A DNA stretch of 64,000 nucleotides from Candidatus Omnitrophota bacterium (lineage in GTDB: Bacteria > Omnitrophota > Gorgyraeia > Duberdicusellales > 4484-171). Positions within the stretch are counted from its first letter, which is position 1. The number at the start of each line of letters is the position of its first letter. Of the stretch, positions 11,362 to 45,361 are shown piece by piece. A model generated the notes under the pieces. That model saw only the letters and a list, made by a program, of their open reading frames with translations, was not told the origin of the DNA and did not search any database. The position numbers were made by a program, and so were the translations under genes. The stretch covers positions 4,459 through 68,458 of the forward strand of contig JBDRAN010000005.1 in the NCBI GenBank assembly GCA_043823745.1, written 5' to 3'.

Positions 11362-12201
11362 CTACTCCTTCCAATACTTCTGAAACACATACCACTGTTC
11401 AGGATATTGCTCGATATATCGCTCAAGGATCTTCGCGTACGCACTCATAATACACGATTCGATATCCGGGCAAACTACATCATAGACGATCGGTTTCTCT
11501 ATGATGAGCCGGTAATAATATTTTTTATCCCGTACAAAAAAACAAGGGATAACGGCGGCGGCGGTCTTACGCGCAAAAAATGCGGCGCCGCGCGGAAGCA
11601 AGCAGGAACGTGAAAAAATCTGCGCCGATGACCCCTCACGAGTAAAATCACGATCACCGAGTACCCCTACAATACCTCCCTGCTTGAGTATTTGGATACA
11701 CCGTTTGACCGTGATGCCGGTAGAAACAACTCGTAACCCGGCCAGCTCCCTCTGCCTGACAAAAAAATGAGTAAGGCGCTCATCGCTATGAGGCAACGCA
11801 ATAACATGACAAGGGTAACCTCGGAGAGCCACAACCGCACCTCCAAGTTCATAATTACCCAGATGTGCGCTTACGACGATAACGCCTTTTTTCTCCTGAA
11901 GAGCTTTGTCTAGATATTCGAGGCCTTCGATGCGTACGTAGCGCTCGATAAACTGCGCATTAAGCTTCGCGTAACGAAAAAAATCAGAAAGATAATACGC
12001 GAAGTTTATAAAAACTTCTCGCGCAGAATGCCGTAAGCAAGGAACCGAGCCAAGAACCGGCGTAAGATTATATATAACGTTATTACGATCCTTGGAAGAA
12101 CAATGAAATTGAATAATCGCAAGAATTCGAGCGACCGCGTAGCAAAGTTTTCGAGGTAATGCCAGTGCGAGCTTTCTTCCGATAATAAATAAATAATACA
12201 T
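11362..12201 (-). CDS. lipid A biosynthesis lauroyl/myristoyl acyltransferase (LpxL/HtrB family)
   Basis: Acyltransferase HX4D-like region (SAHLGNYE) and LpxL-family length and pattern. This implies an outer membrane. Confidence 0.75.
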   Translation of the reverse strand: MYYLFIIGRKLALALPRKLCYAVARILAIIQFHCSSKDRNNVIYNLTPVLGSVPCLRHSAREVFINFAYYLSDFFRYAKLNAQFIERYVRIEGLEYLDKALQEKKGVIVVSAHLGNYELGGAVVALRGYPCHVIALPHSDERLTHFFVRQRELAGLRVVSTGITVKRCIQILKQGGIVGVLGDRDFTREGSSAQIFSRSCLLPRGAAFFARKTAAAVIPCFFVRDKKYYYRLIIEKPIVYDVVCPDIESCIMSAYAKILERYIEQYPEQWYVFQKYWKE

Positions 12202-12243
12202 GTTTTACGTGCACGCCTTTAGGCTATCGGGGTCACCGGACCG

Positions 12244-13353
12244 CTAAAGCCCCAGTACCATATCCGCAATACGCAACGAAGAATCAATAAACGAAACCTT
12301 CCGGGCATTCAACTTCAACACCGAAAGCTTCTGTCGATCGCCAAGGAGGTCCTCGACCGAACGGATAACGGCAGGGATACCATCAGCATGAACGATTGCC
12401 CCGCGCGACGAAAGATATCGTACGTTATGCTCCTCCTGGCCCGGAATAGGCTGGATCGTAACGATCGCAAGGCCTTTCGCTAAGGCCTCCGAAATCGTAA
12501 TGCCGCCCGCTTTCGTAATGATAATGTCAGCGCAATCCATCAGCCGCGCGATCGCATCGGTATAGGCAAGGCACGTGATGGGCTTGGTGAACGTCGATGT
12601 ATGCTTCTTAAACCACGAGTATAACTTTTTATTTTTCCCGCAGACGATAATCATTTGGAACGTCCCCGGTAACGCATCAAGCTGGGAAGCAATTTTCTCC
12701 ATAGGCCCAAGCCCCCAACCTCCACCCATGATAAGCACCGTCGGAACATCCGCGCGTAAACCAAAGTCTGCGGCAGCTTCGATGCGGCTACATGCAGTCA
12801 TAAATTTTACGGAAATCGGTATTCCTAAAAGCTCAATTTTCGAGGCCGCGACCCCCTCCGCAACAAGACTTTCGCGTGCCGCGTCACAGGCAACAATATA
12901 TTTATCGACCGCCGGATGAATCCAAAAACGATGTGGATGATAGTCGGTAACCACCGCGAGTAAGGGGATATCCAGGGAATGGCTGGCTTTAAAGTCAGCG
13001 ACAATACCGCACGGAAATGCCTGTGTAGCAATAAAACAATCGGGCCTAAACTCGTCAATAAGGGCCGACAATTTTGAAAACGTGAGCCGGTTGATACACG
13101 CGCGAAAAGGATTTAAGCGACGCACCAGAGTTTTACGATCATACAACCTTCCCCAAAGCCAAGAAACATGTTTAATGACAAACGCGTACACCGCATCAAC
13201 GAACCGTTCACTCCATGGATAAAAATACCCAAAGCCATTAAGGCTGCGTACGGCCAGGTCCGGTTTTCGATATAAGAGGGCTTCCTTAATGTTTTGCGCG
13301 GCCTTGCTATGACCGCCGAAGTCAGAAATATGAAAAATAAGAACGCGCTTCAT
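12244..13353 (-). CDS. GT28-family glycosyltransferase, MGDG-synthase/UgtP-like (diacylglycerol glycosyltransferase)
   Basis: MGDG-synthase-like N-terminal domain plus a C-terminal GT-B nucleotide-sugar motif (IITKAGGITISEAL). Confidence 0.7.
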   Translation of the reverse strand: MKRVLIFHISDFGGHSKAAQNIKEALLYRKPDLAVRSLNGFGYFYPWSERFVDAVYAFVIKHVSWLWGRLYDRKTLVRRLNPFRACINRLTFSKLSALIDEFRPDCFIATQAFPCGIVADFKASHSLDIPLLAVVTDYHPHRFWIHPAVDKYIVACDAARESLVAEGVAASKIELLGIPISVKFMTACSRIEAAADFGLRADVPTVLIMGGGWGLGPMEKIASQLDALPGTFQMIIVCGKNKKLYSWFKKHTSTFTKPITCLAYTDAIARLMDCADIIITKAGGITISEALAKGLAIVTIQPIPGQEEHNVRYLSSRGAIVHADGIPAVIRSVEDLLGDRQKLSVLKLNARKVSFIDSSLRIADMVLGL

Positions 13354-14621
13354 GGCTCCTTATAACCATCGCGCGCGCGCGAAACATCCCGCGTCCGATC
13401 GCCTCGTGATACAGCCTGACGGGTTTTCCGAACGCGATGAGGGTATATTTTTAAAAACGCATCAACCACGCACGGCGTAAACTGTCTGCCTTTATTTTTC
13501 TTGATTTCGTCGATTGCCGACTGAAGGCTTAACGCTTTCTGGTAAGGCCGGTCAATAGTCATCGCGTCAAAAGAATCGGCGAGGGCGATAATCGAGGCGA
13601 TGAGCGGGATTTGCTGCTTTTTAAGCCCCGCAGGATAGCCGCTACCATCATACCGTTCATGATGGTATCTGACCCCCAACAAGACATCTTTAAATTCCTC
13701 GACCTGCTGCAAAATATTCGCGCCAATAAGCGGATGCTGTTGAATAATAAGGCGCTCTTGGTGATTTAATGACGAGACTTTGCAAAGAATACTTTCCGGA
13801 ACTCCTATTTTTCCGATATCATGCAAGAGAGCCGCGGTGCGCACATCCTGTAAGAACTTCTCACTATTATCAGGACGGAGCCGACCACGCAGATTATTCG
13901 CAATAGCAAGAGCGTGTTTGACGACCCGCTCGGTATGCCCAATGGTATATTTATCTTTTGCTTCGATGCTTGACGCAAGCGCTGCGACCGTCTGAACAAA
14001 AAGACGCTTATTGAGCGCAAGCTGGTGATTAAGGTCCTCGATGAGCCATGCATTCTTAAGCGACATCACCACATCGCTTGACAAGACCGAAAGTACATCT
14101 AACTCTTCAGGATTCAACGCGCGATTGTTCTTCTTTGCTCCCAAAAAAAGAAGGCCAATCAAATCTTTTCTAAAAAAACCCGGTATGCACGCACACGCGC
14201 CATACAAAGAAAGATTAACCTCAAGGCTTTCAAGGAAATTTTTTACGCGCTTATCGCGCTTGGCGCGCGAATGCCGCTTGAGACCCCCGATACGCTCGAG
14301 CAACAAATTATCTTTCGTGAAAGGAAGTGTCTTATCGGTAAAATAGCGAATAAGGGGATTATGGGGCCGTATCTTGGCAAAACCCGCCGGAATCCGCATG
14401 CCGGAAGCACCTCGGGAAAACTGTGCTACATATTCTTTGCGATTCTTATCATAAATGAACATGCCCGCGTGCAAAAGTCCCATATTAGTTACAATCGTGC
14501 GTAAAATCATACGCACAAGAGTATCTGCACGATGATACAGAATCGTCTGACGGGCAGCTTTCTCCAGATACGTTAGGTGTGAAGATCTCATATTGCCATC
14601 GTATGGCTCACCGATACTCAC
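13350..14621 (-). CDS. HD-GYP domain c-di-GMP phosphodiesterase with N-terminal sensory (GAF-like) region
   Basis: LHDIGKIGVPESIL (HD) and HHERYDGSGYP (GYP) motifs. GTG start at 14621, with an alternative ATG 10 codons in. Confidence 0.85.
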   Translation of the reverse strand: MSIGEPYDGNMRSSHLTYLEKAARQTILYHRADTLVRMILRTIVTNMGLLHAGMFIYDKNRKEYVAQFSRGASGMRIPAGFAKIRPHNPLIRYFTDKTLPFTKDNLLLERIGGLKRHSRAKRDKRVKNFLESLEVNLSLYGACACIPGFFRKDLIGLLFLGAKKNNRALNPEELDVLSVLSSDVVMSLKNAWLIEDLNHQLALNKRLFVQTVAALASSIEAKDKYTIGHTERVVKHALAIANNLRGRLRPDNSEKFLQDVRTAALLHDIGKIGVPESILCKVSSLNHQERLIIQQHPLIGANILQQVEEFKDVLLGVRYHHERYDGSGYPAGLKKQQIPLIASIIALADSFDAMTIDRPYQKALSLQSAIDEIKKNKGRQFTPCVVDAFLKIYPHRVRKTRQAVSRGDRTRDVSRARDGYKEP

Positions 14622-14626
14622 CAGTA

Positions 14627-14989
14627 TTACAAAATATACTGCTTAACTTTTCTATCGAGCTCCTCAAGGTCAAGCGGCTTGGTAATATAATCAAACGCTC
14701 CATACTTTTTTGCCCGTTCCTGGTATTCTTTTTCTTCTTTGCCGGTAATCATCATAACGCGCGAAAGTGGGTTTATTCTCTTTATTTCCTTAAGAACCGA
14801 AAGCCCATCTTTATCCGGCATGGTAACGTCAAGAAATGTACAATCGGGATGATGCATATTGTATGACTCAATTGCTGCGGCACCGCTGGTTGCTTTCACA
14901 ACATCAATTCCATGTCTTTGAAGGAACCGCTCCAGAAAATCGACCACCTCCGGCTCATCGTCAACAATCAAAACTTTTTTTCGCATCAT
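14627..14989 (-). CDS. stand-alone response-regulator receiver (CheY-like)
   Basis: VLIVDDE, phospho-acceptor Asp context (FLDVTMPDKDG) and a conserved Lys (YITKP). Confidence 0.9.
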   Translation of the reverse strand: MMRKKVLIVDDEPEVVDFLERFLQRHGIDVVKATSGAAAIESYNMHHPDCTFLDVTMPDKDGLSVLKEIKRINPLSRVMMITGKEEKEYQERAKKYGAFDYITKPLDLEELDRKVKQYIL

Positions 14990-15081
14990 TCCTCCGTTCG
15001 CGATACACCGTGCCTATCAAGGGAGCCTGCCATCCAAGAAAAAAATGATTCTCTGAACAAACACTGTCCACATGAGAAAAC

Positions 15082-16443
15082 TTATATCAAATTAAGATAC
15101 GCCGCGCCTTCGACTAACGGGTTAAGCGCACCTTCTATGGATACGCTATCTTTTAGGAACCAAAGATCTATGAGCTCACGTTGTGACCCTTCAGAAATTA
15201 TCTCGACTTTTGGCAGCCAAATATCACCGGGATTTTGTTCCCGAACGATGCCAATCCGGCCGTCAACAAGCCTTACGATGGTACCCTTAGGCCAGATACC
15301 GAGTGACGCAAAGAAACGTTCCAGAAGGTTAGGATCAAAAAAATCACCTTTCTTTTTCATCATGATATCGTAAATCATATTGGGCGGATAATCACGTTTA
15401 TAGGTGCGCCGCTGAGTAAGGGCATCATACACATCGCAGATCGAGACGATTAAAGAAACCACATGAGGCTTATGAGCAAATCTGGTCTTAGGATATCCCG
15501 ATAAATCATAGCCGCGATGGTGCTCAAGCGCAACCACAAAAGGAAGGATCCCCATCGTATCAACATATTTGAGCAGAAACTCAGCGCCAAAACTAGTGTG
15601 GCTCTGGACTACCCTATATTCCTCGTCGGTAAGCTTTTTCGGCTTTTTGATAATCCGGGAAAGGTATATTTTACCGATATCGTGGAACAGCGCCGCGATA
15701 CCAACATCAAGAACGTCCTCTCTCGTAAACCCCAGTTGCGAAGAAAAGTACATTGAAAGTATCGATGTATTCAACAGGTGGATAAACGTAGCTAAATCAT
15801 ATTTCTTTGCGGCGCTCAACTTTAAAAATTCGCTATACCGACTAAGTAAACCCTCCATCACGTCAACAATATTTGTACGTAATTGCAAATAATCAACACC
15901 TTCGCCGCTGAGCAATGTGTCAATATAGCCCGGAAGCTCCTCAAGCGATCGTTCGTAACGGTAGAATGCCTTATCTGCGGAAGATAAACCGTCACCGGCG
16001 CCCTCGTTTTCCCGAAAGCCTTTGATTTTGCCGATCGAAATATTTTTTACCCCTAAACTCGAAAGATAATCCTGAAGGTCCTTCCCTCCTGCCACATATG
16101 AATCGATTTTTTCTTCAGGAAGTGCTATGAACGCAATAAATTCGATTAATTCCTCTTTGCTGACACCCCGCGAAACAACAAGCCGCTCGATATGGCGACG
16201 AGAAAGATGTTGGATTACTCCTTTTATTTTTTTGCTTAAATCAAAAAATATCTCTTTATCGCAGGCCAATTCATCGCCAACAATCCCCACCACAAACTCA
16301 TCGCGAACCACAAGCACTCGCTCAAAACTATCATGAGCTCTCGTAATCGCTTCAGCAAAAAGAGGGTGCTGTTGCGTGTAGATTTTCATTACCTGCAAGG
16401 CTACCGAGAAGTCCCTCAATGCCTTTTCAATAATTTCATACAT
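15082..16443 (-). CDS. HD-GYP domain c-di-GMP phosphodiesterase with DUF3391-like N-terminal domain
   Basis: FHDIGKIYLS and HHRGYDLSGYP motifs. The N-terminus (ALQVMKIYTQQHPLFAEAI) resembles the N-terminus of the adjacent 641-aa protein. Confidence 0.85.
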   Translation of the reverse strand: MYEIIEKALRDFSVALQVMKIYTQQHPLFAEAITRAHDSFERVLVVRDEFVVGIVGDELACDKEIFFDLSKKIKGVIQHLSRRHIERLVVSRGVSKEELIEFIAFIALPEEKIDSYVAGGKDLQDYLSSLGVKNISIGKIKGFRENEGAGDGLSSADKAFYRYERSLEELPGYIDTLLSGEGVDYLQLRTNIVDVMEGLLSRYSEFLKLSAAKKYDLATFIHLLNTSILSMYFSSQLGFTREDVLDVGIAALFHDIGKIYLSRIIKKPKKLTDEEYRVVQSHTSFGAEFLLKYVDTMGILPFVVALEHHRGYDLSGYPKTRFAHKPHVVSLIVSICDVYDALTQRRTYKRDYPPNMIYDIMMKKKGDFFDPNLLERFFASLGIWPKGTIVRLVDGRIGIVREQNPGDIWLPKVEIISEGSQRELIDLWFLKDSVSIEGALNPLVEGAAYLNLI

Positions 16444-16486: not shown

Positions 16487-18412
16487 TTAACCGTCAACAC
16501 CCGCCTGCCACCGCGCCAGAACTGCTTTAATGTCCCGGCACAACGAAATATTCCAGAACGATTTTTTTGTAAAAGCCAGAAGTATGGAGGCTGCCTCAAC
16601 AAGATTTAACTCCTGTATAATCCGTAAATTTTGGCGTACGCGAGCGTTGCGGATACCGAACGGATTAAAGATATTAAGAAGTGTGCTGATGGCGCGCATC
16701 ATTGCACTGTCGCTGCGGCGAACGATCGTCAATGCTTGCTTTTTTGAAAAAGTATCCCCTGTTCTTAAAATTATATGCATAAAATCCTCATCGAACACGG
16801 AAATATACTGCATCGCATTCAAAATCTCCCGTTTGAGCATCGGTCCCGAAAAAGAATACATAAAGCGTAATACCTGAAGGCTTGCCGGCCGATCAACCTC
16901 ACCGAGAGATTCGATGATTTTTTTCAAATAGACAGTATCAACATACTTCCGGCGCAAAGCGTTACACAACGCCTCGGTCCCGCCAGGAAAGAATATAAAG
17001 AATAATTCGAGGATCTCGGGCTGCGCTTTCGCTTCTTCGACAATTTTCCGCACATAAAAAAAACTATCGTGGTGACTCGTCGTAAACGCCCGTATAAATA
17101 ACTTCTTCTCGGGCAACAGGCCTCCGGATAATACAAAATCTTCAAGCAAAACGGAAAGATGGTTATAAATAGCCTTAAAGTCACGATGCACGCCTTCGCG
17201 CTCCAATTGAAAAAGAAACTCAAGGATAACCTCGATCGCTGCAAAATCGCGCGCATGAACCAGCTCATACAATTCCGCTATAATTTTTTCGCGTGCGCGT
17301 GTAATAACAAACGCTGATGACTCAGTCCCGAATAAATCAAGTAACGCAAAACGATAATTCCGACTTAATTCCACACGGTCAAAAACAACGGTGCTTTCAT
17401 TGAGTGTTGTATCAAGGAGCGGCGCGAAGACGTTTCGGTATACCTCAAGAATGAAAGGGGTAGTTACCTCGGTGAGTAGCTCCCTGACCTTCTTCTTCAT
17501 CCGGGGAGTCGCCTCTTTGCTGCGGGCGGAAACCACACCAGTCAAAATAGACGCAATTTTCCCGTGTCGTTCTCGATCGATAAGGCGGCTAAAGAGATTG
17601 AAACTCGCCGTATCAAAATCCTCAGCGGAAAGCACCTGCTCACCCAGAATATGGGCAAAGTCCTCGTCGCTGATTTTCGCAAATAGTGATTTCAGTTTTT
17701 CAAGTTTTTCTTCCGATGGAACGCTCTTATCCCTCAAGATCGCTTTCCCAAGCTCGCGCGAACAGGCATGGAACTTCTCTTTCTCGACATGTTTCAGATA
17801 ATCGAGAAACATCATTACATTTTCGCGTAAACTGTCGCGGTCGATAAAGTCTTGTATTTTAAATTTTCCAAGAATTTTCGGAAAGTTATCGGCCAGCGCA
17901 TTAATATCTTTTGTGTCGCGCCGCGTGACAGCTGAACCCAACAGGAAAGTCCAGATATCTTTATACTCCTCTCCCTCTCCGACGAGAAGTTGCGAATAAT
18001 CAAGCTCTTCAACCGTGATGGTAGAAATTCCCGCGTGATGGATCATGCGGACAATACCACCCTGCGCAAAGACTTCACGGGGAGACCGAGCGACAATATT
18101 GATAAATGAGGCAAGTTCTCCAGGGGTGGTACACGGAGAAAACTCAACCGTTTTGAGTTTGCGCGAATGAAACATCTCTGCCAATTCGCGATACACACGC
18201 ATACCCTCAAAGGGCATACCTGCAATATGCAAGGAATGAGGAGCGATATCGACACGTAACGGAATTTCCAGCGAAACCGCAGTGGTTATACGGGCATACA
18301 GGTCGTCTATCGCGCGAATAAACATAGGATGCTCAATAAAATAGGTAGCCGCATGGTTGAGTGTAATTCGTAAATTTTTAAGTAATTCCTCTAGGGCTTC
18401 TGCCTTATCCAT
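16487..18412 (-). CDS. 641-aa all-helical protein of unknown function; N-terminus paralogous to HD-GYP N-domain, no catalytic motif seen
   Basis: Long ORF with SD. The N-terminal ~60 aa (LNHAATYFIEHPMFIRAIDDL) parallels the N-terminus of ORF 15082..16443. No HD, GGDEF or EAL motif found. Confidence 0.7.
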   Translation of the reverse strand: MDKAEALEELLKNLRITLNHAATYFIEHPMFIRAIDDLYARITTAVSLEIPLRVDIAPHSLHIAGMPFEGMRVYRELAEMFHSRKLKTVEFSPCTTPGELASFINIVARSPREVFAQGGIVRMIHHAGISTITVEELDYSQLLVGEGEEYKDIWTFLLGSAVTRRDTKDINALADNFPKILGKFKIQDFIDRDSLRENVMMFLDYLKHVEKEKFHACSRELGKAILRDKSVPSEEKLEKLKSLFAKISDEDFAHILGEQVLSAEDFDTASFNLFSRLIDRERHGKIASILTGVVSARSKEATPRMKKKVRELLTEVTTPFILEVYRNVFAPLLDTTLNESTVVFDRVELSRNYRFALLDLFGTESSAFVITRAREKIIAELYELVHARDFAAIEVILEFLFQLEREGVHRDFKAIYNHLSVLLEDFVLSGGLLPEKKLFIRAFTTSHHDSFFYVRKIVEEAKAQPEILELFFIFFPGGTEALCNALRRKYVDTVYLKKIIESLGEVDRPASLQVLRFMYSFSGPMLKREILNAMQYISVFDEDFMHIILRTGDTFSKKQALTIVRRSDSAMMRAISTLLNIFNPFGIRNARVRQNLRIIQELNLVEAASILLAFTKKSFWNISLCRDIKAVLARWQAGVDG

Positions 18413-18458
18413 GACAACACCTTAATCGAGACACGGTAGCATAAACACCTACCGGACG

Positions 18459-19607
18459 TTAAAAATATTCACTATACACGTGCATAATCTTCTGCATCAA
18501 GGAACGAGTGACACAATGGTCGTTCTCAAGAAACCGATGAACGCCATACGAAAGGCATCCGAACGATGCCGATGCAGCGCGCCCATTTGCCGGGATAAGG
18601 GTTTCTTCGCCGGCACAAGTCTTAAAAAATTCAAGAAACCCTTCGTGGGTTGTTAGTTGACTCACGCAACCAACAGCACATGCCATGATTTCCCGTTGCC
18701 TCTTGATATCCGCTAAAATTTCGCGCACCTTACCGCGAACAAACTCGCATACAAAAGCATTAAAAGTCTGCGTGCTGAGGCTGGCATAGGTGTCGCCGTT
18801 TTTAACGCTAATTTCCTTATAATGGGGTGTATCCGTAAATGAAAGATACCGGTCCGCGATCTCTCCGGCAAGACCGGGGGCCAACAAGAATTTTTTCTCG
18901 ATCTCCCGAAAAATATGGTACACGCTGAAACTATCATTACTCACGAATTCCAGAGAACCGCTCCTATATACACTGACATGCATGTCGCGGGCGCCGATCG
19001 TCAGGATAATCTGCGGCAGAACGATGTGTGGCTGTGAATTAAAAACCGAGATGCTGCTTATGCCGGCACTCACAAAGCCTCCGAATTCTCTATCAAGATT
19101 ATCAAAAACATCTTCCGCCTCACGCCGCAGTTTTTCCTTTATATAAAAAAGTAACGAACGAGTATTTATTTTTTTTGCTTGCATCCCAATCGGCGGCCGG
19201 AGGAAATGCTGGCCCTCAATCTCATAATCAAGAATCAAATGGTGTACGCACGTATCATCCCAGTCAAGCGCCAATTCTTGAATATACTTTCGGGCATACC
19301 CGATGTCTCCCGCGGAAACCTTTTTACGACTCTTAAAGGGGACTGTCTCATCGATCTGCGTACGCTGCTGGACGCTCCAGGGAAGGACACAAAAAACCTT
19401 TTCTACCTTGAGAGAATACGCAATCTCTTTTTCCTGTATACGCTGCTCGATCAGATAAGCATTTTTCTTGAGCGTATCAATAAAATCAACGCCGGCATTA
19501 CACGCAATTTCCAGCTCCTCAATAAATCGAACCACTCCCCGCTCATAAGCCGCCAGGGCCACATACGCGCGCGCGCCATCGATATCAATACCGCAAAACC
19601 CTCTCAT
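18459..19607 (-). CDS. ftsA: divergent actin-fold cell division protein FtsA-like
   Basis: Position immediately after ftsQ. Phosphate-1-like GIDIDGARAYVALA and phosphate-2-like LTIGARDMHVSVY motifs of the FtsA/actin fold. Sequence is otherwise divergent. Confidence 0.6.
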   Translation of the reverse strand: MRGFCGIDIDGARAYVALAAYERGVVRFIEELEIACNAGVDFIDTLKKNAYLIEQRIQEKEIAYSLKVEKVFCVLPWSVQQRTQIDETVPFKSRKKVSAGDIGYARKYIQELALDWDDTCVHHLILDYEIEGQHFLRPPIGMQAKKINTRSLLFYIKEKLRREAEDVFDNLDREFGGFVSAGISSISVFNSQPHIVLPQIILTIGARDMHVSVYRSGSLEFVSNDSFSVYHIFREIEKKFLLAPGLAGEIADRYLSFTDTPHYKEISVKNGDTYASLSTQTFNAFVCEFVRGKVREILADIKRQREIMACAVGCVSQLTTHEGFLEFFKTCAGEETLIPANGRAASASFGCLSYGVHRFLENDHCVTRSLMQKIMHVYSEYF

Positions 19608-20356
19608 CGTTTCCTTCCTAAATATACTTTGTCATACCGTAAATCAATATATTCAACGAGTGCCAAATCACCCTTAAGCTCACCGCGCAAGATTGTTTCC
19701 AAAGTTCCAAGTTTACGTTTAAAATCATTTTTCCCGAGAATTATTTTCGTCTGATCAATCATCATACACATGACCTCAGGCTGCGTAGCATTAATCGATT
19801 GCACTGAAAATTTTCGCAGGAACCGCGCTTTATATAATTCCTCAATGAGTACAAAAGCGGTTTCAAGGCGCACGTCAGCCACGCGCTGGCCCGGTTTCAG
19901 GCGCCGGTTATAATCGTCAATCTCAATGAGCACGAAACCCGGCGCCGCGCTTTGATCCTCGGTAATAACAACACCCTCCCGGTCAACAGGATAATTTTTA
20001 TCCCCCTTAAGAAGCGCAAAAGGTTTTCTTATCACGATCGTAATTCGCACCGCGCTGGGAAATTCTTTAGACAGATAAACTTCTTTGTACTCCGGATGCT
20101 GACGGTAAATCTGCGCGCGGATACCCTCGAGATCAACGTCAAACAACGATTCATTTCCGGTAAGCGTTATCGCATTATTATCGATCGCGACATTCGAACG
20201 CAGCTCTTTTACCATAAATATCGATGAGCTGGAAAGCTCTTTGCCCAGATACACCGCAAACAACACAAAGAGCACGCAAAAAAATCCGATCACCGCCGCT
20301 TTGGGAGTCGGGATAAGCTTAACTTTTTTTAACTTCTTGAATTTGGTTTTTGCCAT
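19604..20356 (-). CDS. ftsQ: cell division protein FtsQ (POTRA domain)
   Basis: N-terminal basic segment plus a single TM (VIGFFCVLFVLFAVYL), a POTRA-like region, and position between ddl and ftsA. Confidence 0.75.
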   Translation of the reverse strand: MAKTKFKKLKKVKLIPTPKAAVIGFFCVLFVLFAVYLGKELSSSSIFMVKELRSNVAIDNNAITLTGNESLFDVDLEGIRAQIYRQHPEYKEVYLSKEFPSAVRITIVIRKPFALLKGDKNYPVDREGVVITEDQSAAPGFVLIEIDDYNRRLKPGQRVADVRLETAFVLIEELYKARFLRKFSVQSINATQPEVMCMMIDQTKIILGKNDFKRKLGTLETILRGELKGDLALVEYIDLRYDKVYLGRKR

Positions 20357-21272
20357 AGAAAGCCGCTCTGATCATTTCCATAATTAATTCATTGAACGAT
20401 ATGCCGCATGCAGCCGCTGAAAGCGGAAGAAGACTATGCGAAGTCAGGCCGGGAATCGAATTAACTTCCAGCACATAGGGCACCTCATCCGGGCTAAGAC
20501 GGATGTCTACCCGCGAAAAATGACGACACCCCAGGGACCGGTGCGCTGCTACTGCCGTCTTCTGCACGGCCCGATATACTGCCTGTTTGAGTTTTGCCGG
20601 AGCGATAAGGTCGGCCAGTCCATCGCTATATTTAGTCGTAAAGTCAAAGTAGCCTCCGCGAGGTACGATCTCAACCACCGCAAGCGGCTCTTCCTTAAAA
20701 ATACCGACCGTTAACTCTCTGCCTTCAATATATTGCTCAATCAAAAGCTTATCCTGCACACGAAACGCAACGTCAATGGCTTGACGCAAAGACATATCAT
20801 CGCGGACGATTGAAACCCCGATACTTGAGCCGGCGCAATATGGTTTCACCACTACCGGATACCGAACCATCGTTGACATTACCTGGCCGCGCGCGAGCAT
20901 ACACGAGGGAGCAATGGGAATGCGTTTCTTCGCAAACACCTCTTTAGAAGCGATTTTATCCATCGCCAGACGACTTGCAACAGGACCGGAACCGCTATAC
21001 GGTATATCAATTGACTCAAGAATCCCCTGGATGCTGCCGTCTTCTCCGAACTCACCGTGCAACGCGATAAAAACTACGTCGGGAGCATGAAGTTTAAGCT
21101 GCGCTTTTATAACAACGTCATCACGACTGGTAATATCAATAAAAACAGCCTCCACGCCGCGGGAATCAAGCGTCCGGCAAACCTGCGCTCCTGATTGCAA
21201 CGAAATGTCCCGCTCTGAAGACACTCCGCCGGCCAATACCCCGACTTTAATATTGCTCAAATCGAATGACAT
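20319..21272 (-). CDS. ddl: D-alanine--D-alanine ligase
   Basis: VGVLAGGVSSERDISLQSG N-terminal motif and ATP-grasp signatures (EQYIEGRELTVG, LEVNSIPGLT). Confidence 0.95.
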   Translation of the reverse strand: MSFDLSNIKVGVLAGGVSSERDISLQSGAQVCRTLDSRGVEAVFIDITSRDDVVIKAQLKLHAPDVVFIALHGEFGEDGSIQGILESIDIPYSGSGPVASRLAMDKIASKEVFAKKRIPIAPSCMLARGQVMSTMVRYPVVVKPYCAGSSIGVSIVRDDMSLRQAIDVAFRVQDKLLIEQYIEGRELTVGIFKEEPLAVVEIVPRGGYFDFTTKYSDGLADLIAPAKLKQAVYRAVQKTAVAAHRSLGCRHFSRVDIRLSPDEVPYVLEVNSIPGLTSHSLLPLSAAACGISFNELIMEMIRAAFYGKNQIQEVKKS

Positions 21273-21400
21273 ATGGTTATCGGTTACTTTCTATCCACGC
21301 CTTATGATGTCAAAGTGTCAGACGTCAGGGTGTCAAAATGTCCAGTCATTTTCCCTACTTTGACGCTTTGATACTTTGACACGTTGACGCTTACTGCGCC

Positions 21401-22255
21401 CTACATCCATCGCTCTATTTCTTCTTCCAGTATCACTCCAAACTTTCGATGCACCGTATCTTTAATCCTACCAATAATACAATCAACGTCGGCATACGTT
21501 GCTCTCCCGGTATTGATAATAAAATTGGCGTGTTTAGATGAAACCTGCGCGTCGCCGACGGTAAGCCCCTTTAAACCACAAGAGTCAATAAGAAATCCGG
21601 CAGCGTACCCCGTGGGATTCTTAAAAACAGAACCGCAGCTGGGATAGGTAAAGTCCTGACTCTGGTAGCGCCGGGAAAGAATATTCGCGATTTCCGCTCG
21701 AAGAGCCTGATGCGGAGTGACACGAAACCATGCGCGCGTAATAATCAGGTTTCCAAACGACGAACTCCGGTAACCAAATACCATCTCATCCCGGGATATC
21801 CGCACGCACGTGCCGGTTCTTGTCACCGCTTCAACCGCCACAAGAACAGAACAAATCTCTCGGCCGAACGATGACGCATTCATGCGCACCAAGCCCCCGA
21901 TGGTCGCAGGGATTCCTGCCAGCTCATGCAATCCACCCAAATTATGCTTTACGCAATACTTAAGGACCGCGGCTAACTTCGTTGCGGCGCCGGCCTCAAG
22001 CAAATCTCCGGCGCATCTGGTGTAATCAAATTCTTGCCCAAGCGTAACAACCGACGTACGCAGCGCGCCGTTACGGATTAAAAGATTCGAGCCCCCGCCC
22101 AAACAGTAATATGCGCCGACTGTATCCGCAAGAACTGCCTGAACGTCGTCAAGGCTATGCGCGTGAAAGAAATACTGAGCCGTGCCCCCGATTTTTATCG
22201 TGGTGTAGGGGGCCAACTCAACGCCCTGCGCTAACTCTATTCTTTTTGTACCCAC
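21401..22255 (-). CDS. murB: UDP-N-acetylenolpyruvoylglucosamine reductase
   Basis: FAD-binding GGGSN motif and the C-terminal MurB signature CGSVFKNP. Confidence 0.95.
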   Translation of the reverse strand: MGTKRIELAQGVELAPYTTIKIGGTAQYFFHAHSLDDVQAVLADTVGAYYCLGGGSNLLIRNGALRTSVVTLGQEFDYTRCAGDLLEAGAATKLAAVLKYCVKHNLGGLHELAGIPATIGGLVRMNASSFGREICSVLVAVEAVTRTGTCVRISRDEMVFGYRSSSFGNLIITRAWFRVTPHQALRAEIANILSRRYQSQDFTYPSCGSVFKNPTGYAAGFLIDSCGLKGLTVGDAQVSSKHANFIINTGRATYADVDCIIGRIKDTVHRKFGVILEEEIERWM

Positions 22256-23603
22256 TGATAACTTCCTCCATGATCGTATTGATATCTCCCGCGCCCAAAC
22301 CCATCACTAGATCTCCCTCTTGAAGAAGCATCGGCAATTCTTCAACGATCCGCTCCCGTGCGATATAACGTGCTCCTTGCGGAAAAAACTTTTTTATGTG
22401 GTCCAGAAGAAACAACGCATCAATGCCCTCGATCTTTGTCTCTGACGCGGCGTACACATCCGTAAGGATCACTTCATCCGCATGCGCGAAACACTGCGAA
22501 AACTCAACGCATAACTGCTTGACTCGCGAAAAGCGGTGCGGCTGGAATACTGCCACCAGACGCCGGCATGAAAGCAAACGGGCGGCCTTAAGCACCGCGT
22601 TAATTTCCGTGGGGTGATGCGCGTAATCATCAACAAAGGTGACGCCGGAAACCACCTCTTTAATCTGGAAGCGACGCTTCGTTCCTTTAAACGTACTAAG
22701 TGCCCCAAGCGCTCCCGTAACGTCGAGTCCGTGATAATAAAAAAACCCGAGCACCGCGAGCGTATTTAATGCGTTATGTTCTCCCAGAAGCGGCACCCGC
22801 ACCACTCCGATGCTTTTACCTTCAATGATGACCTCAAACACGCTACACGTTCCATCGAAGGAAAATTGCGTGGCCCGTACCACATTGTGCTCGCCAAATC
22901 CATACGAAATACCTCCCACCTTATCAAGAATAATACGCACACTCGCGTCATCGCCGCATCCAAAAACTTTGCCGCCGGTATTGCGAGCGAAACGCAAGAA
23001 ATTCTCCTTAAGGTGCGCCATTGTTTTATGATAATCAAGATGCTCAGAATCAATATTGGTAATAATAGAAGACCACGGCTTACAATACAGAAAACTTCCA
23101 TCGCTTTCGTCGGTTTCAACCACAAAATAATCCTTTCCCCACCAGGCATTACGGCCGCAATTAAGGGCTACACCCCCCACACATACCGTCGGAAACAGGC
23201 CAAGCGAGGTTAAAAGATGCCCCATGAGCGCGGTAGTCGTGGTTTTACCATGACTTCCGCATATCGCGACCGTTTTTTGGCCCTCACATAAAAGGCCCAG
23301 GAGTTCTCCGCGCTTAAGAATCGCTATCCCGCGGCGCCGAGCCTCGATAAGCTCGGGATTATCTTCTTTGACCGCAGACGAATACACCAAAAGTTGCACC
23401 TCGGGCCCGATATTGTTCGGGGCGTGCCCAATGTCAACGGAAATGCCGGCCGATGTAAGCATCCGGACCGCATACGAATCAGAGACATCGGAACCGCGAA
23501 CCAAAAAACCCCGTTCGCGAAGCAGCAGCGCCAAGCCACTGGTGCCGATCCCCCCGATCCCCGATATATAGATTGCCGTTATTCCAGATAAAACTTTTTC
23601 CAT
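22218..23603 (-). CDS. murC: UDP-N-acetylmuramate--L-alanine ligase
   Basis: N-terminal IYISGIGGIGTSGLA, Mur ligase P-loop GSHGKTTTT, and C-terminal domain motifs. Confidence 0.95.
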   Translation of the reverse strand: MEKVLSGITAIYISGIGGIGTSGLALLLRERGFLVRGSDVSDSYAVRMLTSAGISVDIGHAPNNIGPEVQLLVYSSAVKEDNPELIEARRRGIAILKRGELLGLLCEGQKTVAICGSHGKTTTTALMGHLLTSLGLFPTVCVGGVALNCGRNAWWGKDYFVVETDESDGSFLYCKPWSSIITNIDSEHLDYHKTMAHLKENFLRFARNTGGKVFGCGDDASVRIILDKVGGISYGFGEHNVVRATQFSFDGTCSVFEVIIEGKSIGVVRVPLLGEHNALNTLAVLGFFYYHGLDVTGALGALSTFKGTKRRFQIKEVVSGVTFVDDYAHHPTEINAVLKAARLLSCRRLVAVFQPHRFSRVKQLCVEFSQCFAHADEVILTDVYAASETKIEGIDALFLLDHIKKFFPQGARYIARERIVEELPMLLQEGDLVMGLGAGDINTIMEEVISGYKKNRVSAGR

Positions 23604-24379
23604 TTCTCCTCTAACTCGCTCATTGACCGTATCGATTGAAAGCTTCGTGACAAGGCATCTTCTATCGTAGAGCCGTTACGCAGGAAATATAAAAATTGAG
23701 AAAAATGATCCCTGCCGTACCGCCCCACTAAAAAAGAAATAATAGAATAGGACTCAAGGTAAAAAAGACTAACCGAGCCAGTTCCCGAACTCGACAGGCC
23801 CTCTGGGCGCATCTGATTTAAATCAGAAAATTTGATATACGTATTGTCCTTAATCGCCCGGCGTATCAGATACATGCTTCTGGCGTACGGATTCGAAACA
23901 TGTTTGCTTTCAACATACAACGCTGCCGCCTCATCAAGCCACAGCGGTAATTTTCCGCTACCTACATATTCCCGAAAAATAATGTGCGTTAGCTCATGGG
24001 CAAAAATAGAAGCGCGATTGTGCTGATGAGGGTACGTGTATATAATTTTATCCCGGTAATCAACACACGCTCCTGACCATGACGGGCATTTGAAAGTACT
24101 TACATATTCTTGCTTATCCGCTGCTATAAAAACTTTTGCCCGATTATCCCACAACCACAGGTTGTCTCTCACGAGATTAAATTCCTGGGTAATATCTCGA
24201 TAATAACCCTCAAGCACATCGGCGGTAGAACGAACGTATCCCTCATCAATTGAGGCTGGATAATAAATTAAAAAATGTTCCGAACGCAATTCGCGATAAC
24301 CCTGCGGAATCTGTGCGCACAGCGGTGAAGCACCAAAAAGGATAACGCTAAGCGCACACCGCGCGATAAAATTTTTCAA
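23579..24379 (-). CDS. secreted zincin-like metallopeptidase (HExxH...E, peptidase-MA-like), unknown specificity
   Basis: Signal peptide (ALSVILFGASPLCAQ), HELTHIIF followed by LWLDEAAALY (Glu 19 residues after the second His). It is inserted between murC and murG. Confidence 0.55.
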   Translation of the reverse strand: MKNFIARCALSVILFGASPLCAQIPQGYRELRSEHFLIYYPASIDEGYVRSTADVLEGYYRDITQEFNLVRDNLWLWDNRAKVFIAADKQEYVSTFKCPSWSGACVDYRDKIIYTYPHQHNRASIFAHELTHIIFREYVGSGKLPLWLDEAAALYVESKHVSNPYARSMYLIRRAIKDNTYIKFSDLNQMRPEGLSSSGTGSVSLFYLESYSIISFLVGRYGRDHFSQFLYFLRNGSTIEDALSRSFQSIRSMSELEEKWKKFYLE

Positions 24380-25376
24380 TGCCCACCTCTATGTCCATGG
24401 CGCTCAAGTTCTCTCTAAGCCGTTCCCTCAATTGTGTGTTAAACAGAACCTGCGTCAATACCTCTGCAAATTCATCAAACGAAAAATTTTCCTGCGTAAA
24501 CATAAATGCGGCGCCGCGCTTCCTGAAATATGCCGCATTTGCTTCCTGATGCGCACCCGCAGCTGGATAAGGCACCAGGAGCGCAGGAAGCTTATAGTAG
24601 ATAATCTCCGCAAGCGTCGAAGCGCCACAGCGGGTAATAACCGCATCGGCGGCGCTATATAACAACTCCATGGAATAGTAAAAATCACGTACGAACGTTG
24701 TTTTTTCTATTGTATTATAGAATTGCGTAATTTGGAAGTATTCTCTTTTTCCGGTTAAATGAATTATCTGAAAATCCTCTTTTATCTCACGAGCCAGGCG
24801 CAGGCACGTACTGTTTAAAAACGCTGAACCCTGGCTGCCGCCAAAACAAAAAATGACCGGGGACTCAGTCAAACCAAGCGCCGCACGCGCACGCGTTTTA
24901 TCGATGATCCGAATGGTATCACGCAACGGGATGCCAACGGCCTGCGCGCGCCTCGTCGCTGAACGTAAAGGGAACCCTACGAGAATCTTTCCCGCAAATA
25001 TCGAAAGCACTCTGTTGGCGCGGCCCATCGTGGCATTCGGCTCATAAATATAGGTTTTGCGCATACACAAGGAGCCGAACAATACCAGAAAGAAACTATC
25101 TCTGCCGCCGAATCCTACAATTTTTTGCGGGCGTTCGCGCACGATAAGATATGCTGCCTCCAGCAAACGAAATATCATCTCAACCAGCACGTTTCGGGAA
25201 GGGAAAACTTTTCCGGAAACGCAAAAACCCTCCCGCGCCAGATGCTCCTTCAAAAAAGGAGCCGTGACAAAGAAAGAAACCGTAGCTTCCGGTGAATGTT
25301 CTTTTATTTTTTTTGCCAGCGCCAATGCCGGAAAGACATGACCGCCGCTGCGGTCGCACGCGAGTAAAATACGCAT
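24348..25376 (-). CDS. murG: UDP-N-acetylglucosamine--N-acetylmuramyl-(pentapeptide) pyrophosphoryl-undecaprenol N-acetylglucosamine transferase
   Basis: GGHVFPALA N-terminal motif and GT28 C-terminal region. The start is moved to MRILLACDRSGGH. Confidence 0.9.
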   Translation of the reverse strand: MRILLACDRSGGHVFPALALAKKIKEHSPEATVSFFVTAPFLKEHLAREGFCVSGKVFPSRNVLVEMIFRLLEAAYLIVRERPQKIVGFGGRDSFFLVLFGSLCMRKTYIYEPNATMGRANRVLSIFAGKILVGFPLRSATRRAQAVGIPLRDTIRIIDKTRARAALGLTESPVIFCFGGSQGSAFLNSTCLRLAREIKEDFQIIHLTGKREYFQITQFYNTIEKTTFVRDFYYSMELLYSAADAVITRCGASTLAEIIYYKLPALLVPYPAAGAHQEANAAYFRKRGAAFMFTQENFSFDEFAEVLTQVLFNTQLRERLRENLSAMDIEVGIEKFYRAVCA

Positions 25377-25383
25377 AGCCCTC

Positions 25384-26532
25384 TCACGTTTCCTTTGATG
25401 CATTAAAAAACAATCCCAGCAGAATAAAATGCGTGATCAGATTTGAACCACCGTAACTCATAAAGGGAAGCGGCAGGCCTTTCGTCGGGAAAAGCCCGCA
25501 GGAAACTCCTATATTGATGATCACTTCAAGGAAGAAAATAAAAATAATTCCCCAGAGCAAGCCGCGCCTGAACTCGTCGGTAGAGCGTTGAGCAATGCCG
25601 ACCATCGCATTAATTAAGAAGAAAAATAGCGCGAAAAGAGAAAGCGAGCCCCACAGGCCGAATTCTTCAGCAATAATAGAAAAAATAAAATCGGTATGCG
25701 CGGCGGGGAGAAAAAAAAGTTTCTGGCGGCCCTCCCCTAATCCCACCCCCCATAGGCCTCCCTCGCCAAACGCAATTTGGGATTGTATGATCTGGAACCC
25801 GGTGTTGCGTGGGTCAGCGTACGGGTTAAAGTACGCGGTGATCCGCTTGAAACGGTACGGGTAAAGCGTGATCAAGAAAAAAAGTAATACGACTCCAAAA
25901 ATAACAATCAAGAAAATATGCTGTTTGCGCGCGCGGTGCAGAAAAAGAAAAAACAAAGTCCAGACCACCCAAAAAATCGACGAACCTAAATCAGGTTCAA
26001 GAAGCAACAACAACGACGTCACACCGAGAATGAGGCCCAAAGGAAGCAAACCCTGACGGAAATAGCGGATAAGGTTTCCCTTGCGACGGCAATATTCGGC
26101 GCAATACACCAGAAAGGTTATTTTAAGCATCTCCGAAGGCTGGAAGTTAAAAAACGGGGAATGAAACCAGCGCCGGGCTCCGCCGGCGCGCTTCCCGACA
26201 ATTAAAACGGCAAAGAGCAGAATAATAGTGATAGCAAGAAAAACCTTGTTGTTGCGACGTAAAAAATCCAAGTCAACAAAAAGCATTGCGATAAACAATG
26301 CAACACCTACCGCGCAATAGCTAAGCTGCCGTGAAAAAAAATACATCGGGTCCGAAGAAATTTTATACGCGTAAATACTCGACGACTCATAGACCATGAT
26401 GAGGCCAAAAAGGCTCAAGAACATAACGGTTAAAAATATGAAACGGCGCTGTTTTTTTATATCAAACGTCTTCATCACTAAAAGTGATACGTTCGGAGCA
26501 TGTGTGGGGCCTTGCTCCTTAACTAAAAACAT
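25384..26532 (-). CDS. ftsW: SEDS-family peptidoglycan glycosyltransferase FtsW
   Basis: 10-TM SEDS pattern with conserved HTDFIFSIIAEEFG and PFMSYGGSNL motifs. The true start may be the internal Met (MKTFD). Confidence 0.9.
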   Translation of the reverse strand: MFLVKEQGPTHAPNVSLLVMKTFDIKKQRRFIFLTVMFLSLFGLIMVYESSSIYAYKISSDPMYFFSRQLSYCAVGVALFIAMLFVDLDFLRRNNKVFLAITIILLFAVLIVGKRAGGARRWFHSPFFNFQPSEMLKITFLVYCAEYCRRKGNLIRYFRQGLLPLGLILGVTSLLLLLEPDLGSSIFWVVWTLFFLFLHRARKQHIFLIVIFGVVLLFFLITLYPYRFKRITAYFNPYADPRNTGFQIIQSQIAFGEGGLWGVGLGEGRQKLFFLPAAHTDFIFSIIAEEFGLWGSLSLFALFFFLINAMVGIAQRSTDEFRRGLLWGIIFIFFLEVIINIGVSCGLFPTKGLPLPFMSYGGSNLITHFILLGLFFNASKET

Positions 26533-26652
26533 ATGTCGCAGGCATTGTTTGCCCGGAATACACCCGCGGAAATACCTTCAGAAAATTTCTGGACATGGCG
26601 GAACGCCGAAAAACATGACCTCTTTTACCTTAACGGACAAGAACGCCCGGAG

Positions 26653-27933
26653 TTATGTCATTTGTGACGTTTCAATTGCATTGTCCCGGCTCAGACTGTT
26701 GACTGCTGCCATAAATTTTCTACCCCTATCCATATAATTTAAAAACATGTCAAAACTCGAGCACATAGGAGAAAATACTATGGTATCACGCTTGCGTGCC
26801 TGGCCGAAGGAAGCGCGGACAACGGCTTCCAACGAAGGAAATATCTCAACCGGAACCCGCCCCCCGAGTGCCTGCTTTATTTTCTCGGCAGCCTGGCCGA
26901 TCAGATTAACTTTTTTAACCCTCTTCAGATACGGAATAATAACCGCGTAATCTACTCCTTTATCCTTGCCTCCGGCAATTAAAATAATATCGCCCTTGAG
27001 CGCCTGGAGGGCCCACATTGTCGATGAAGGATTTGTTGATTTTGAATCATTGATAAACCGAACCCCCGCGAGATCTCTAACAAGCTGCAGACGATGCGGA
27101 AGCCCGCGAAACTCTGAAAAAACGCCGACACAATCAGCCTTGCTTAAACCGAAGATGGTGGCGGTACGGTATATACATGAGAAGTTTTCATTGGGAAATT
27201 CGTCAGAAAAGTAAACGATGCGCGATGTAATACGTTTTTCGATATCGCCACGCATAGCGATATTCTTATTAACCACCGCGTAGTCCCGTACGGTCTGATT
27301 CCTGAAAAGATTCATCTTCGCGTTATAATAATCGGTAACGGTCGGGTGCCGGTCAAGGTGATTCGGCTCGAAATTTAAAAGGCAGCCCACAAAGGGACGA
27401 AACTCAATAATAGACTCGAGTTGAAACGAACTTATTTCAAGGACGATTACGTCACCTTTCTTTGTAGCAAGGATAAATGAAGAGACGGGAATACCAATGT
27501 TACCGCCTAAAAAAACCCGCTTACGTCTACTCTTTAAAACTCGATACGTAAGAAACGTGGTCGTTGTCTTCCCATTCGTGCCGGTAATAGCTACAAAATG
27601 AGCCTTGGTTAACCAGAACGAGAACTCGACTTCTCCAACGCACGGTATCGCACATGCACGCGCGATCGATACCGCGGATGACTGCGCCATGTCCACGCCG
27701 GGGCTCACAACAACTAACTGCGACTCTTTAATGAATTGTTCGGTGTGCGCGCCAAACTCAAAACGGACGCCCCGTTGCATAAAAGCATTAATCGGCCCTG
27801 AAGCAAAACGTTCACGCGGCTTCTCATCCGTAAGCAAAACTTCCTTGCCCAGAGTACGCAGGAGCGTACATAACGCGATGCCACTTTTACCCCACCCGAC
27901 AACGCATACTTTTTTTAGAGCGTCAATATTCAC
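26653..27933 (-). CDS. murD: UDP-N-acetylmuramoylalanine--D-glutamate ligase
   Basis: VVGWGKSG N-terminus and GTNGKTTTT P-loop, in dcw order. Confidence 0.9.
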   Translation of the reverse strand: MNIDALKKVCVVGWGKSGIALCTLLRTLGKEVLLTDEKPRERFASGPINAFMQRGVRFEFGAHTEQFIKESQLVVVSPGVDMAQSSAVSIARACAIPCVGEVEFSFWLTKAHFVAITGTNGKTTTTFLTYRVLKSRRKRVFLGGNIGIPVSSFILATKKGDVIVLEISSFQLESIIEFRPFVGCLLNFEPNHLDRHPTVTDYYNAKMNLFRNQTVRDYAVVNKNIAMRGDIEKRITSRIVYFSDEFPNENFSCIYRTATIFGLSKADCVGVFSEFRGLPHRLQLVRDLAGVRFINDSKSTNPSSTMWALQALKGDIILIAGGKDKGVDYAVIIPYLKRVKKVNLIGQAAEKIKQALGGRVPVEIFPSLEAVVRASFGQARKRDTIVFSPMCSSFDMFLNYMDRGRKFMAAVNSLSRDNAIETSQMT

Positions 27934-27943
27934 AATTATACCG

Positions 27944-29026: not shown

Positions 29027-29029
29027 GAG

Positions 29030-33638: not shown

Positions 33639-34010
33639 CTATTGCGATCGCTCCTGCGCCAATACGGTTGAAGAACCGCTTGAAAACCCAACTGCTTTTT
33701 GTAGTAACGACGCGAATGCGTGTTTAGAGACAGGCACTTTCTTGCTTCCCCGGTTAAGCGCTAACATTTTCCCCTTTTGGACCGGAGAAAATTCATTTTT
33801 ATCAACCCAGGCATTAAGCCGCACCAATGATACTTCTTTCATAAAATTATACATCAAGTGATCGCGCTTATCAACACATTCGTTATAAATCTGATAATTC
33901 TTGCTCAAACGATACGCTTCGACGTAAATCTGCACTTTTTGATGAAGATATAAAAACGTTCCCATAAAAATACATCCTGCGCACGCAAAAAAAATACCCT
34001 GTTTTCTCAT
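33639..34010 (-). CDS. ftsL: cell division protein FtsL-like (bitopic membrane protein)
   Basis: ~120 aa with a single N-terminal TM (IFFACAGCIFMGTFLYL), located between rsmH and ftsI. Confidence 0.5.
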   Translation of the reverse strand: MRKQGIFFACAGCIFMGTFLYLHQKVQIYVEAYRLSKNYQIYNECVDKRDHLMYNFMKEVSLVRLNAWVDKNEFSPVQKGKMLALNRGSKKVPVSKHAFASLLQKAVGFSSGSSTVLAQERSQ

Positions 34011-35373: not shown

Positions 35374-35494
35374 CCCACTTTCCTCCATTTTATTCCACAA
35401 TGTAAATATAAACCTCCACCATTACATTGTCAAGAGGTTTCCGGGAATAAATGCTTATGCCACAATAAGTTGTGGGTGGGTAGGAACGACAACA

Positions 35495-42908: not shown

Positions 42909-43098
42909 TTGCCAGATTCTCTATATTCCATGTATTCCGTATTTTGTGATATTATAGGGTAAATATGGTGCGATTCAAGAATTTTCATTGTTTCCAAGCA
43001 GAAACTTCAGTATAATTAACATGAATAGTTTTAGGCTTAAAGCAAACACGGATTCCGTATATTAATTGTTAGGTTAATAAGCAGAAATAAAAAATGCT

Positions 43099-43428: not shown

Positions 43429-43497
43429 CAACTTCATCCAGCCGACCCAACTCGCCCCTATCGGGGCTTCGTCGTGCGGCTGATGTCGGTGTTATGT
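43423..43497 (+). repeat. attC-like site 1 (75 bp)
   Basis: ACCTAAC...ATCCAGCCGACC...GCGGCTGAT...GTTATGT. The L'' and L' arms pair with one bulged C. Confidence 0.65.
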
Positions 43498-43525
43498 GAA
43501 AATAAAAATAAATAAGGAGGTGCGT

Positions 43526-43974: not shown

Positions 43975-43997
43975 GAGAAAAATAAAAAGGAAAATCA

Positions 43998-45352: not shown

Positions 45353-45361
45353 TATAAGGAA

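Follow-up and report, generated by a model that had tools for sequence, protein, structure and literature searches.

The question raised by this locus is what has become of ftsZ, and what stands in its place, at the 3' end of the division and cell wall (dcw) gene cluster of a member of Candidatus Omnitrophota, a lineage of the PVC (Planctomycetota, Verrucomicrobiota and Chlamydiota) superphylum. The DNA analysed (the window) is a stretch of 64 kb from contig JBDRAN010000005.1 of a metagenome-assembled genome (MAG). In this window ftsQ is followed, all on the minus strand, by a gene for an FtsA-like protein of 382 amino acids (aa) (18459-19607), a gene for a protein of 641 aa (16487-18412) and a gene for an HD-GYP phosphodiesterase of 453 aa (15082-16443). 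A preliminary description of the locus had placed the 641-aa protein in the position of ftsZ. The analysis presented here leads to another reading, which we consider rather probable: that this 3' end is typical of one Omnitrophota clade and combines an altered FtsA, the lack of an ftsZ linked to the cluster, and a separate signalling module formed by the 641-aa protein and its HD-GYP partner.

The sequence covered comprised the 64 kb of the source genome and 21 kb of a closed relative, the Omnitrophota chromosome CP070797.1 (1.52 Mb, locus L010), which carries the same FtsA variant. The FtsA-like gene was compared in 13 distinct loci, CP070797.1 included, and loci of the 641-aa family were gathered from the metagenome by a scan with a trimmed alignment of the family. 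The 641-aa protein is on record from a Candidatus Omnitrophota MAG and its named relatives are all from Omnitrophota or Omnitrophica, as is every named relative of the FtsA-like protein. By these named matches the organism is a Candidatus Omnitrophota, and the PVC lineage guessed in the preliminary description was right.

The 382-aa protein is a true descendant of FtsA. Its gene is found directly after ftsQ in the window and in all related loci, and its first 4 nucleotides (nt) are shared with the end of ftsQ. The NCBIfam model TIGR01174 (ftsA) recognised residues 43-304 with 35.1 bits (E 7.9e-9), five-fold below its cutoff of 175.85, and SHS2_FTSA (PF02491) reached 23.6 bits, under the curated threshold of 25.4, in keeping with the divergent FtsA that had been proposed for this gene. 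When a family profile built from 13 sequences was compared with the PDB, the six best matches were all FtsA, and the top one (7q6f, E 2.3e-8) covered residues 45-255, taking in the FtsA-specific 1C region. A Foldseek search of the PDB with the AlphaFold2 (AF2) model has also returned FtsA for its 19 top matches, and global alignment of 19 family members with Escherichia coli FtsA by hhalign placed residues 1-382 against residues 7-420. Profile and structure comparison show that the domain layout specific to FtsA, an actin-like fold with the 1C (SHS2) insert, has been retained over the full length of the protein. The resemblance to canonical FtsA (E. coli and Thermotoga maritima; TIGR01174, PDB 7q6d and 4a2a) consists of the place after ftsQ, the end-to-end alignment including 1C/SHS2, a conserved S(S/T)xxG(C/L)LxYG segment and a C-terminal amphipathic helix, whereas the differences are an identity of about 15%, a score below the cutoff, the replaced nucleotide motifs and the lack of a neighbouring ftsZ.

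The divergence of this FtsA, which had been noticed before, is real and goes deeper than was described, as all the nucleotide-binding motifs have been lost. Motifs were tabulated in 19 family sequences, each counted where it covers the region concerned. The phosphate-1 motif (DxGT/S; GLEIGTAK in E. coli) has become GIDIDxDK in the family, the phosphate-2 motif (DxGGGT; VVDIGGGTMD in E. coli) has become xIGYxxS, and the GG-containing adenosine motif (LTGGAA in E. coli) has become fxGRLN; none of the 19 sequences, where it covers the region, keeps any of the three. The protein is predicted to be nucleotide-blind because all three motifs are replaced, and it probably no longer binds ATP or another nucleotide. 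At the adenosine motif, the window protein carries SQLT (residues 308-320) and is more derived than its relatives, the other 18 sequences having G(R/K)L(N/T) in 17 cases and GRLA in one.

The C-terminal tail is conserved. In the global hhalign alignment it ends in IYKEYF against WLRKEF in E. coli, and its hydrophobic moment is 0.42-0.64 in the family and 0.46 in the window protein, compared with 0.57 for the E. coli membrane-targeting sequence; 5% of shuffles of the window tail peptide attain the observed moment. Tail alignment and hydrophobic moment together indicate an amphipathic membrane-targeting helix at the C-terminus, with which the protein would still attach to the membrane and probably continue to act as a scaffold for late division proteins. 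FtsA is usually more conserved than FtsQ. Here the order is reversed: between relatives the FtsA-like protein varies more than FtsQ (in locus L002, for instance, the identities are 33% and 38%, respectively), which fits the loss of a constraining partner. The FtsA-like protein would most likely act as a membrane-tethered, non-nucleotide-binding scaffold that recruits the late divisome (FtsQ, FtsW and FtsI), rather than as an ATP-dependent anchor of FtsZ.

The second element of the proposed arrangement is the lack of linkage between ftsZ and the dcw cluster. Neither the window nor any of the 13 distinct loci, that of the closed chromosome CP070797.1 included, has ftsZ next to the FtsA-like gene, and in these loci the flanking sequence, up to 8-10 kb where the contig is long enough, contains no ftsZ. 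The six frames of the 64-kb window contain neither the signature GGGTG[STA]G nor its relaxed form G[GAS]G[TS]G[STA]G, and a tblastn search of the window with E. coli FtsZ gave no match. The same search over about 1.3 Mb of locus sequence was also negative, although this sequence consists of small pieces of many genomes and is uninformative on whole genomes. Two claims of the preliminary description, that the dcw cluster ends without ftsZ and that the window has no GGGTGTG signature, are therefore upheld by the locus comparison and the six-frame search. A third, that the motif NxDxxD is found nowhere in the window, was wrong, as it occurs five times, once within TruB; the motif is too degenerate to matter.

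The absence of ftsZ from the whole lineage is a broader statement. Omnitrophica were listed as FtsZ-less, together with Planctomycetes and Chlamydiae, in a survey carried out with hidden Markov models (HMMs) (Pende 2021, PMC8178401), the supplement of which reports FtsZ in one of five Omnitrophica genomes (OLB16) and FtsA in four of the five. Rivas-Marin et al. (2016) had also found FtsZ only in OLB16 among Omnitrophica. The FtsZ-less reading is plausible because four of the five Omnitrophica genomes of the 2021 survey lack FtsZ, and from this literature we infer that the lineage is probably FtsZ-less. A homologue search with the FtsA-like profile has recovered 10 proteins, none of which could be linked to the genomes of that table. 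Intact peptidoglycan synthesis is described for 176 complete Omnitrophota genomes in a 2026 preprint (bioRxiv 10.64898/2026.06.07.730766), which nowhere mentions FtsZ or FtsA. That Omnitrophota are probably FtsZ-less has thus been noted in the literature before. The FtsZ-less clusters of Planctomycetota and Chlamydiota (PMC5147048, PMC8178401) are comparable, as these bacteria also belong to the PVC superphylum and possess dcw genes without ftsZ. In contrast to them, which have also lost ftsA, the Omnitrophota genome studied here keeps an FtsA derivative, and ftsQ, ftsW, ftsI and the full mur set lie in one intact collinear cluster.

The third element is the pair of genes that follows. The 641-aa protein, encoded by the first gene of the two-gene module, gave no match in Pfam or NCBIfam and is in no described family. 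Structure prediction, which the preliminary description had proposed, gave with AF2 a confident model (predicted local distance difference test, pLDDT, 85.9) with an alpha/beta domain at residues 1-140, approximately, and then stacked helical hairpins (about 160-640) that form an alpha-solenoid. A near-invariant segment, EELDYSQLL followed by D(I/V)W, is found after the N-terminal domain. The protein had been called all-helical; it is mostly so, but residues 1-140 are alpha/beta in the model. Foldseek matches of the model were weak and only to HEAT/ARM solenoids, with a TM score of about 0.3 at best (0.06-0.31) and 9-13% identity. The likeness to HEAT/ARM scaffolds such as importin-alpha, SF3b155 and the PP2A A subunit lies in the stacked hairpins, a general architecture that is no evidence of common descent, and no repeat family of Pfam was matched. 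The family comprises at least 338 clusters at 50% identity (E<1e-30), and among the best 150 of these 338 clusters almost all members are about 640 aa long.

As previously stated, the 641-aa protein bears no tubulin/FtsZ signature. No Pfam match, no GGGTG[ST]G motif and no GTPase Rossmann-type or FtsZ fold were found in it, and a tubulin-like nature has been rejected, since there is no signature in any frame and the structural matches are HEAT/ARM-like alone. A membrane-embedded protein was also rejected, as no membrane segment is predicted. The third candidate discarded was a degenerate HD-GYP enzyme, because the profile-profile match is limited to residues 7-157 and leaves the HD-GYP domain unmatched.

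That match comes from the partner. The 453-aa protein encoded downstream has Pfam HD_5 and HD domains (HD_5, 53 bits against a cutoff of 27), and its best PDB match is PmGH (4mcw), a phosphodiesterase of cyclic di-GMP (E 1.7e-24). Of 71 orthologues, 69-71 retain the HD, HH and GYP residues, which shows at the level of sequence a cyclic-dinucleotide phosphodiesterase with intact catalytic residues. An orthologue of this enzyme is encoded directly downstream of the 641-aa gene in all 74 informative metagenome loci, with gaps from -13 to +70 nt and frequent overlap of the two genes, and the same order occurs in loci L002, L005, L006, L007, L099 and L101 and in every longer contig inspected. The N-terminal domains of the two proteins (about 135 aa) are homologous (hhalign probability 98.5%, E 2.5e-15, 133 columns), and sequence searches of Pfam and the PDB gave no counterpart of this shared domain. 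The partner resembles the HD-GYP phosphodiesterases PmGH (4mcw), V-cGAP3 (5z7c) and PA4781 (4r8z) in having all the catalytic residues; the 641-aa protein differs from them in lacking the HD-GYP domain, and what it has in common with the partner is the N-terminal domain alone.

The 641-aa gene therefore provides the member without catalytic function in a signalling module of two genes. In the model of its product, the catalytic domain appears replaced by a HEAT/ARM-like alpha-solenoid, with weak fold similarity. Most likely, the shared N-terminal domains would pair the 641-aa protein with its HD-GYP partner, and the solenoid, itself without catalytic function, would position the phosphodiesterase or gate its activity, as a scaffold or regulator. 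In locus L026, another HD-GYP protein (13843-15396), 28% identical by blastp, is encoded just downstream of a 641-aa/HD-GYP pair, together with a 621-aa protein (12060-13925) whose start resembles the shared N-terminal domain by eye only; these further apparent paralogues suggest that the domain has expanded in Omnitrophota.

In most of the loci sampled, the pair is located away from the dcw cluster. Of 59 metagenome loci found through the 641-aa family and having enough upstream sequence, two have the FtsA-like gene upstream and 57 have no FtsA-like gene, ftsQ or ddl nearby. Free-standing pairs are also present in L005 and L007. A fixed wider neighbourhood for the pair was considered and rejected, the neighbours beyond the pair being diverse. 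The dcw end of L009 and that of the closed chromosome CP070797.1 (L010) are without the module, and the FtsA-like gene is followed directly by a receiver gene and a second HD-GYP gene (11331-12986 in L010), with no ftsZ. The placement of the 641-aa gene as the heir of ftsZ consequently does not hold, because the HD-GYP pairing is strict (74 of 74 loci), the pair lies mostly elsewhere, and it is missing from the dcw end of relatives, one of them a closed chromosome, that still have no adjacent ftsZ. The module is not what displaced ftsZ, and its strict partner is a phosphodiesterase, not FtsA. In this clade, it would have come to sit between the FtsA-like gene and the receiver/second HD-GYP pair.

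Several points weigh against the arrangement proposed here. The source is a MAG, an incomplete genome, which bears on the FtsZ-less part; OLB16, labelled as Omnitrophica, has adjacent ftsA and ftsZ genes; and a 2025 paper (PMC12283558) groups Omnitrophota with the phyla that have highly conserved dcw genes. Loss of the canonical motifs is not proof of lost nucleotide binding. The AF2 model of the FtsA-like protein is poor (pLDDT 53.9, and below 50 in the 1C region), so that the FtsA fold is assigned mainly from profile alignments, in which identity is about 15%, even though FtsA fills the top of the Foldseek ranking. The heterodimer or scaffold role is proposed for the 641-aa protein from gene pairing and a shared domain. 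Finally, in 11 of the 13 distinct loci with this FtsA variant the module comes immediately after the FtsA-like gene; one of them is L101, in which the dcw cluster is broken upstream.

The alternative that survives best is that ftsZ has been relocated, so that a normal ftsZ elsewhere in the genome supports conventional division, with an FtsA-like protein that simply evolves fast and continues to anchor FtsZ. It draws on the view of only 64 kb of a MAG, on the side-by-side FtsA and FtsZ of OLB16, on the dcw conservation reported for the phylum in PMC12283558, and on the overall architecture and membrane tail that the FtsA-like protein retains. The same protein has nevertheless lost the ATP-site motifs kept by every characterised FtsA and varies more between relatives than FtsQ, the reverse of the usual order, and both the 13 loci (no ftsZ within up to 8-10 kb, contig permitting) and the HMM survey of Pende (2021), with FtsA in four of five Omnitrophica genomes and FtsZ missing from four, argue for its absence. 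We regard relocation as possible but doubtful.

A more ambitious extension of the arrangement proposed here would be an FtsZ-independent division run by a nucleotide-blind FtsA derivative, in which the solenoid and the HD-GYP protein would constitute a scaffold controlled by cyclic dinucleotides and recruited through FtsA/FtsQ, which would take over from the Z-ring as organiser. This seems improbable. A related reading, in which the 641-aa solenoid and HD-GYP protein would be a lineage-specific division factor, acting together with the FtsA-like protein as a functional substitute for the missing FtsZ, we also judge to be improbable. The linkage in 11 of 13 loci makes a functional tie to division possible as a minority reading, and the FtsA-like gene is the commonest single upstream neighbour of the 641-aa gene (8 of 79). 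In the window, the 641-aa gene lies 46 nt downstream of the FtsA-like gene, on the same strand and with no terminator-like site between them. Moreover, the five-gene block formed by ddl, ftsQ, the FtsA-like gene, a gene for a 606-aa protein and the HD-GYP gene has been kept intact in L101, where the mur genes have moved away and, as in L102 (4202-12243), histidine-biosynthesis genes stand directly upstream of ddl. Against such a division factor, 57 of 59 metagenome loci have the pair with no FtsA-like, ftsQ or ddl gene nearby, as do the free-standing pairs of L005 and L007, and the dcw end of L009 and of the closed L010 is without it; nothing in the 641-aa protein resembles tubulin or actin, no membrane segment is predicted in it, and its sole invariant partner is a phosphodiesterase.

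It is hardly credible that the 382-aa protein is not derived from FtsA but is another actin-fold protein, for instance PilM-like, placed by chance after ftsQ: its scores under the curated FtsA cutoffs and the presence of PilM among the weaker PDB and Foldseek matches (with MreB, after the 19 FtsA structures) would allow it, but PilM was rejected because the best sequence and structure matches are all FtsA, with PilM about seven orders of magnitude weaker by family profile, the alignment takes in the FtsA-specific SHS2/1C region, no pilN, pilO or pilQ genes lie downstream, the start overlaps the ftsQ stop as is usual in ftsQ-ftsA, and an FtsA-like amphipathic tail is present.

The dcw cluster upstream of the FtsA-like gene runs on the minus strand from 35400 down to 19604, as defined by Pfam and NCBIfam matches, in the order mraZ, rsmH, an open reading frame (ORF) in the ftsL position, ftsI, murE, murF, mraY, murD, ftsW, murG, a Peptidase_MA_2 gene, murC, murB, ddl and ftsQ. 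The first gene, mraZ (34933-35400; Pfam MraZ, E 9e-35), is followed by rsmH/mraW (34007-34936; Methyltransf_5, E 1.4e-104) and by a 123-aa ORF (33639-34010) with no Pfam match at E<=0.001, which is assigned by position alone and may be a divergent FtsL. The class B penicillin-binding protein FtsI is encoded at 31857-33557 (Transpeptidase, E 6e-77, and PBP_dimer), and murE, murF, mraY, murD, ftsW and murG occupy 24348-31853, with Mur_ligase domains, Glycos_transf_4/MraY_sig1, FTSW_RODA_SPOVE (E 1e-102) and Glyco_transf_28. The genes murC, murB and ddl (20319-23603) were recognised by Pfam and NCBIfam above the curated cutoffs, and ftsQ (19604-20356) by FtsQ_DivIB_C (E 1.6e-7) and POTRA_1. The cluster had been described as canonical from mraZ to ftsQ, which is correct for the gene order, except for the extra peptidase gene inserted between murG and murC (23579-24379; Peptidase_MA_2, E 8.7e-15). 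The same insertion is present in L002, L006 and L099, so this gene is a conserved, lineage-specific member of the dcw cluster.

Downstream of the module, also on the minus strand, are the genes for a stand-alone response-regulator receiver (14627-14989; Response_reg, E 1.7e-31) and for a second HD-GYP protein whose N-terminus is weakly GAF-like (13350-14621; HD_5, E 3e-36, GAF below cutoff). The presence of these two genes at the dcw end of L009 and L010 indicates that cyclic-dinucleotide signalling genes are recurrent at this place, even without the 641-aa module. A conserved flank follows on the same strand, with an MGDG-synthase-like glycosyltransferase and an LpxL-like acyltransferase (11362-13353; MGDG_synth and Lip_A_acyltrans), and this order is shared by L006, L099 and L010. 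From ftsQ to the acyltransferase gene, the intergenic sequences of the window contain no terminator-like site, and promoter-like sites are not in excess. The tight spacing and the lack of terminator-like sites make transcription of the module together with the dcw cluster plausible, and the spacing suggests that it is probably co-transcribed.

Other features of the window have been recorded. All genes of the dcw region, and nearly all genes of the window, are on the minus strand, and the GC skew is negative throughout, which fits a single replichore arm with a strong gene-strand bias. The sole plus-strand block (about 42900-47900) has a guanine plus cytosine (G+C) content of 0.35-0.40, compared with about 0.47, and its ORFs are mostly without a Pfam match, the exceptions being YccF and an FkbM-type methyltransferase. 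A gene for an XerC/D-type tyrosine recombinase (40015-40902) adjoins the block, with no tRNA gene there, and no tRNA or tmRNA genes were found in the whole window. This block may be an acquired island.

As far as the literature consulted shows, the probably nucleotide-blind orphan FtsA and the 641-aa/HD-GYP pair are both undescribed. So far, the only records of an absence of FtsZ from Omnitrophica are a figure legend and a supplementary table, and they seem to be at odds with a later paper. The 641-aa/HD-GYP pair represents a signalling family that is large, uniform in build and entirely uncharacterised, and that comprises no fewer than 338 clusters at 50% identity. For Planctomycetota and Chlamydiota, which have lost FtsA as well, the way in which a cell with a peptidoglycan wall divides in the absence of FtsZ is an unsolved problem. 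If the reading is true, Omnitrophota would be a third and different case, with a complete collinear dcw cluster, an FtsA that keeps its tail and 1C domain, a lost ATP site and apparently no FtsZ, and they would offer a natural orphan FtsA for study. Confirmation in closed genomes would mean that the scaffold role of FtsA is separable from the tethering of FtsZ and from ATP-dependent polymerisation.

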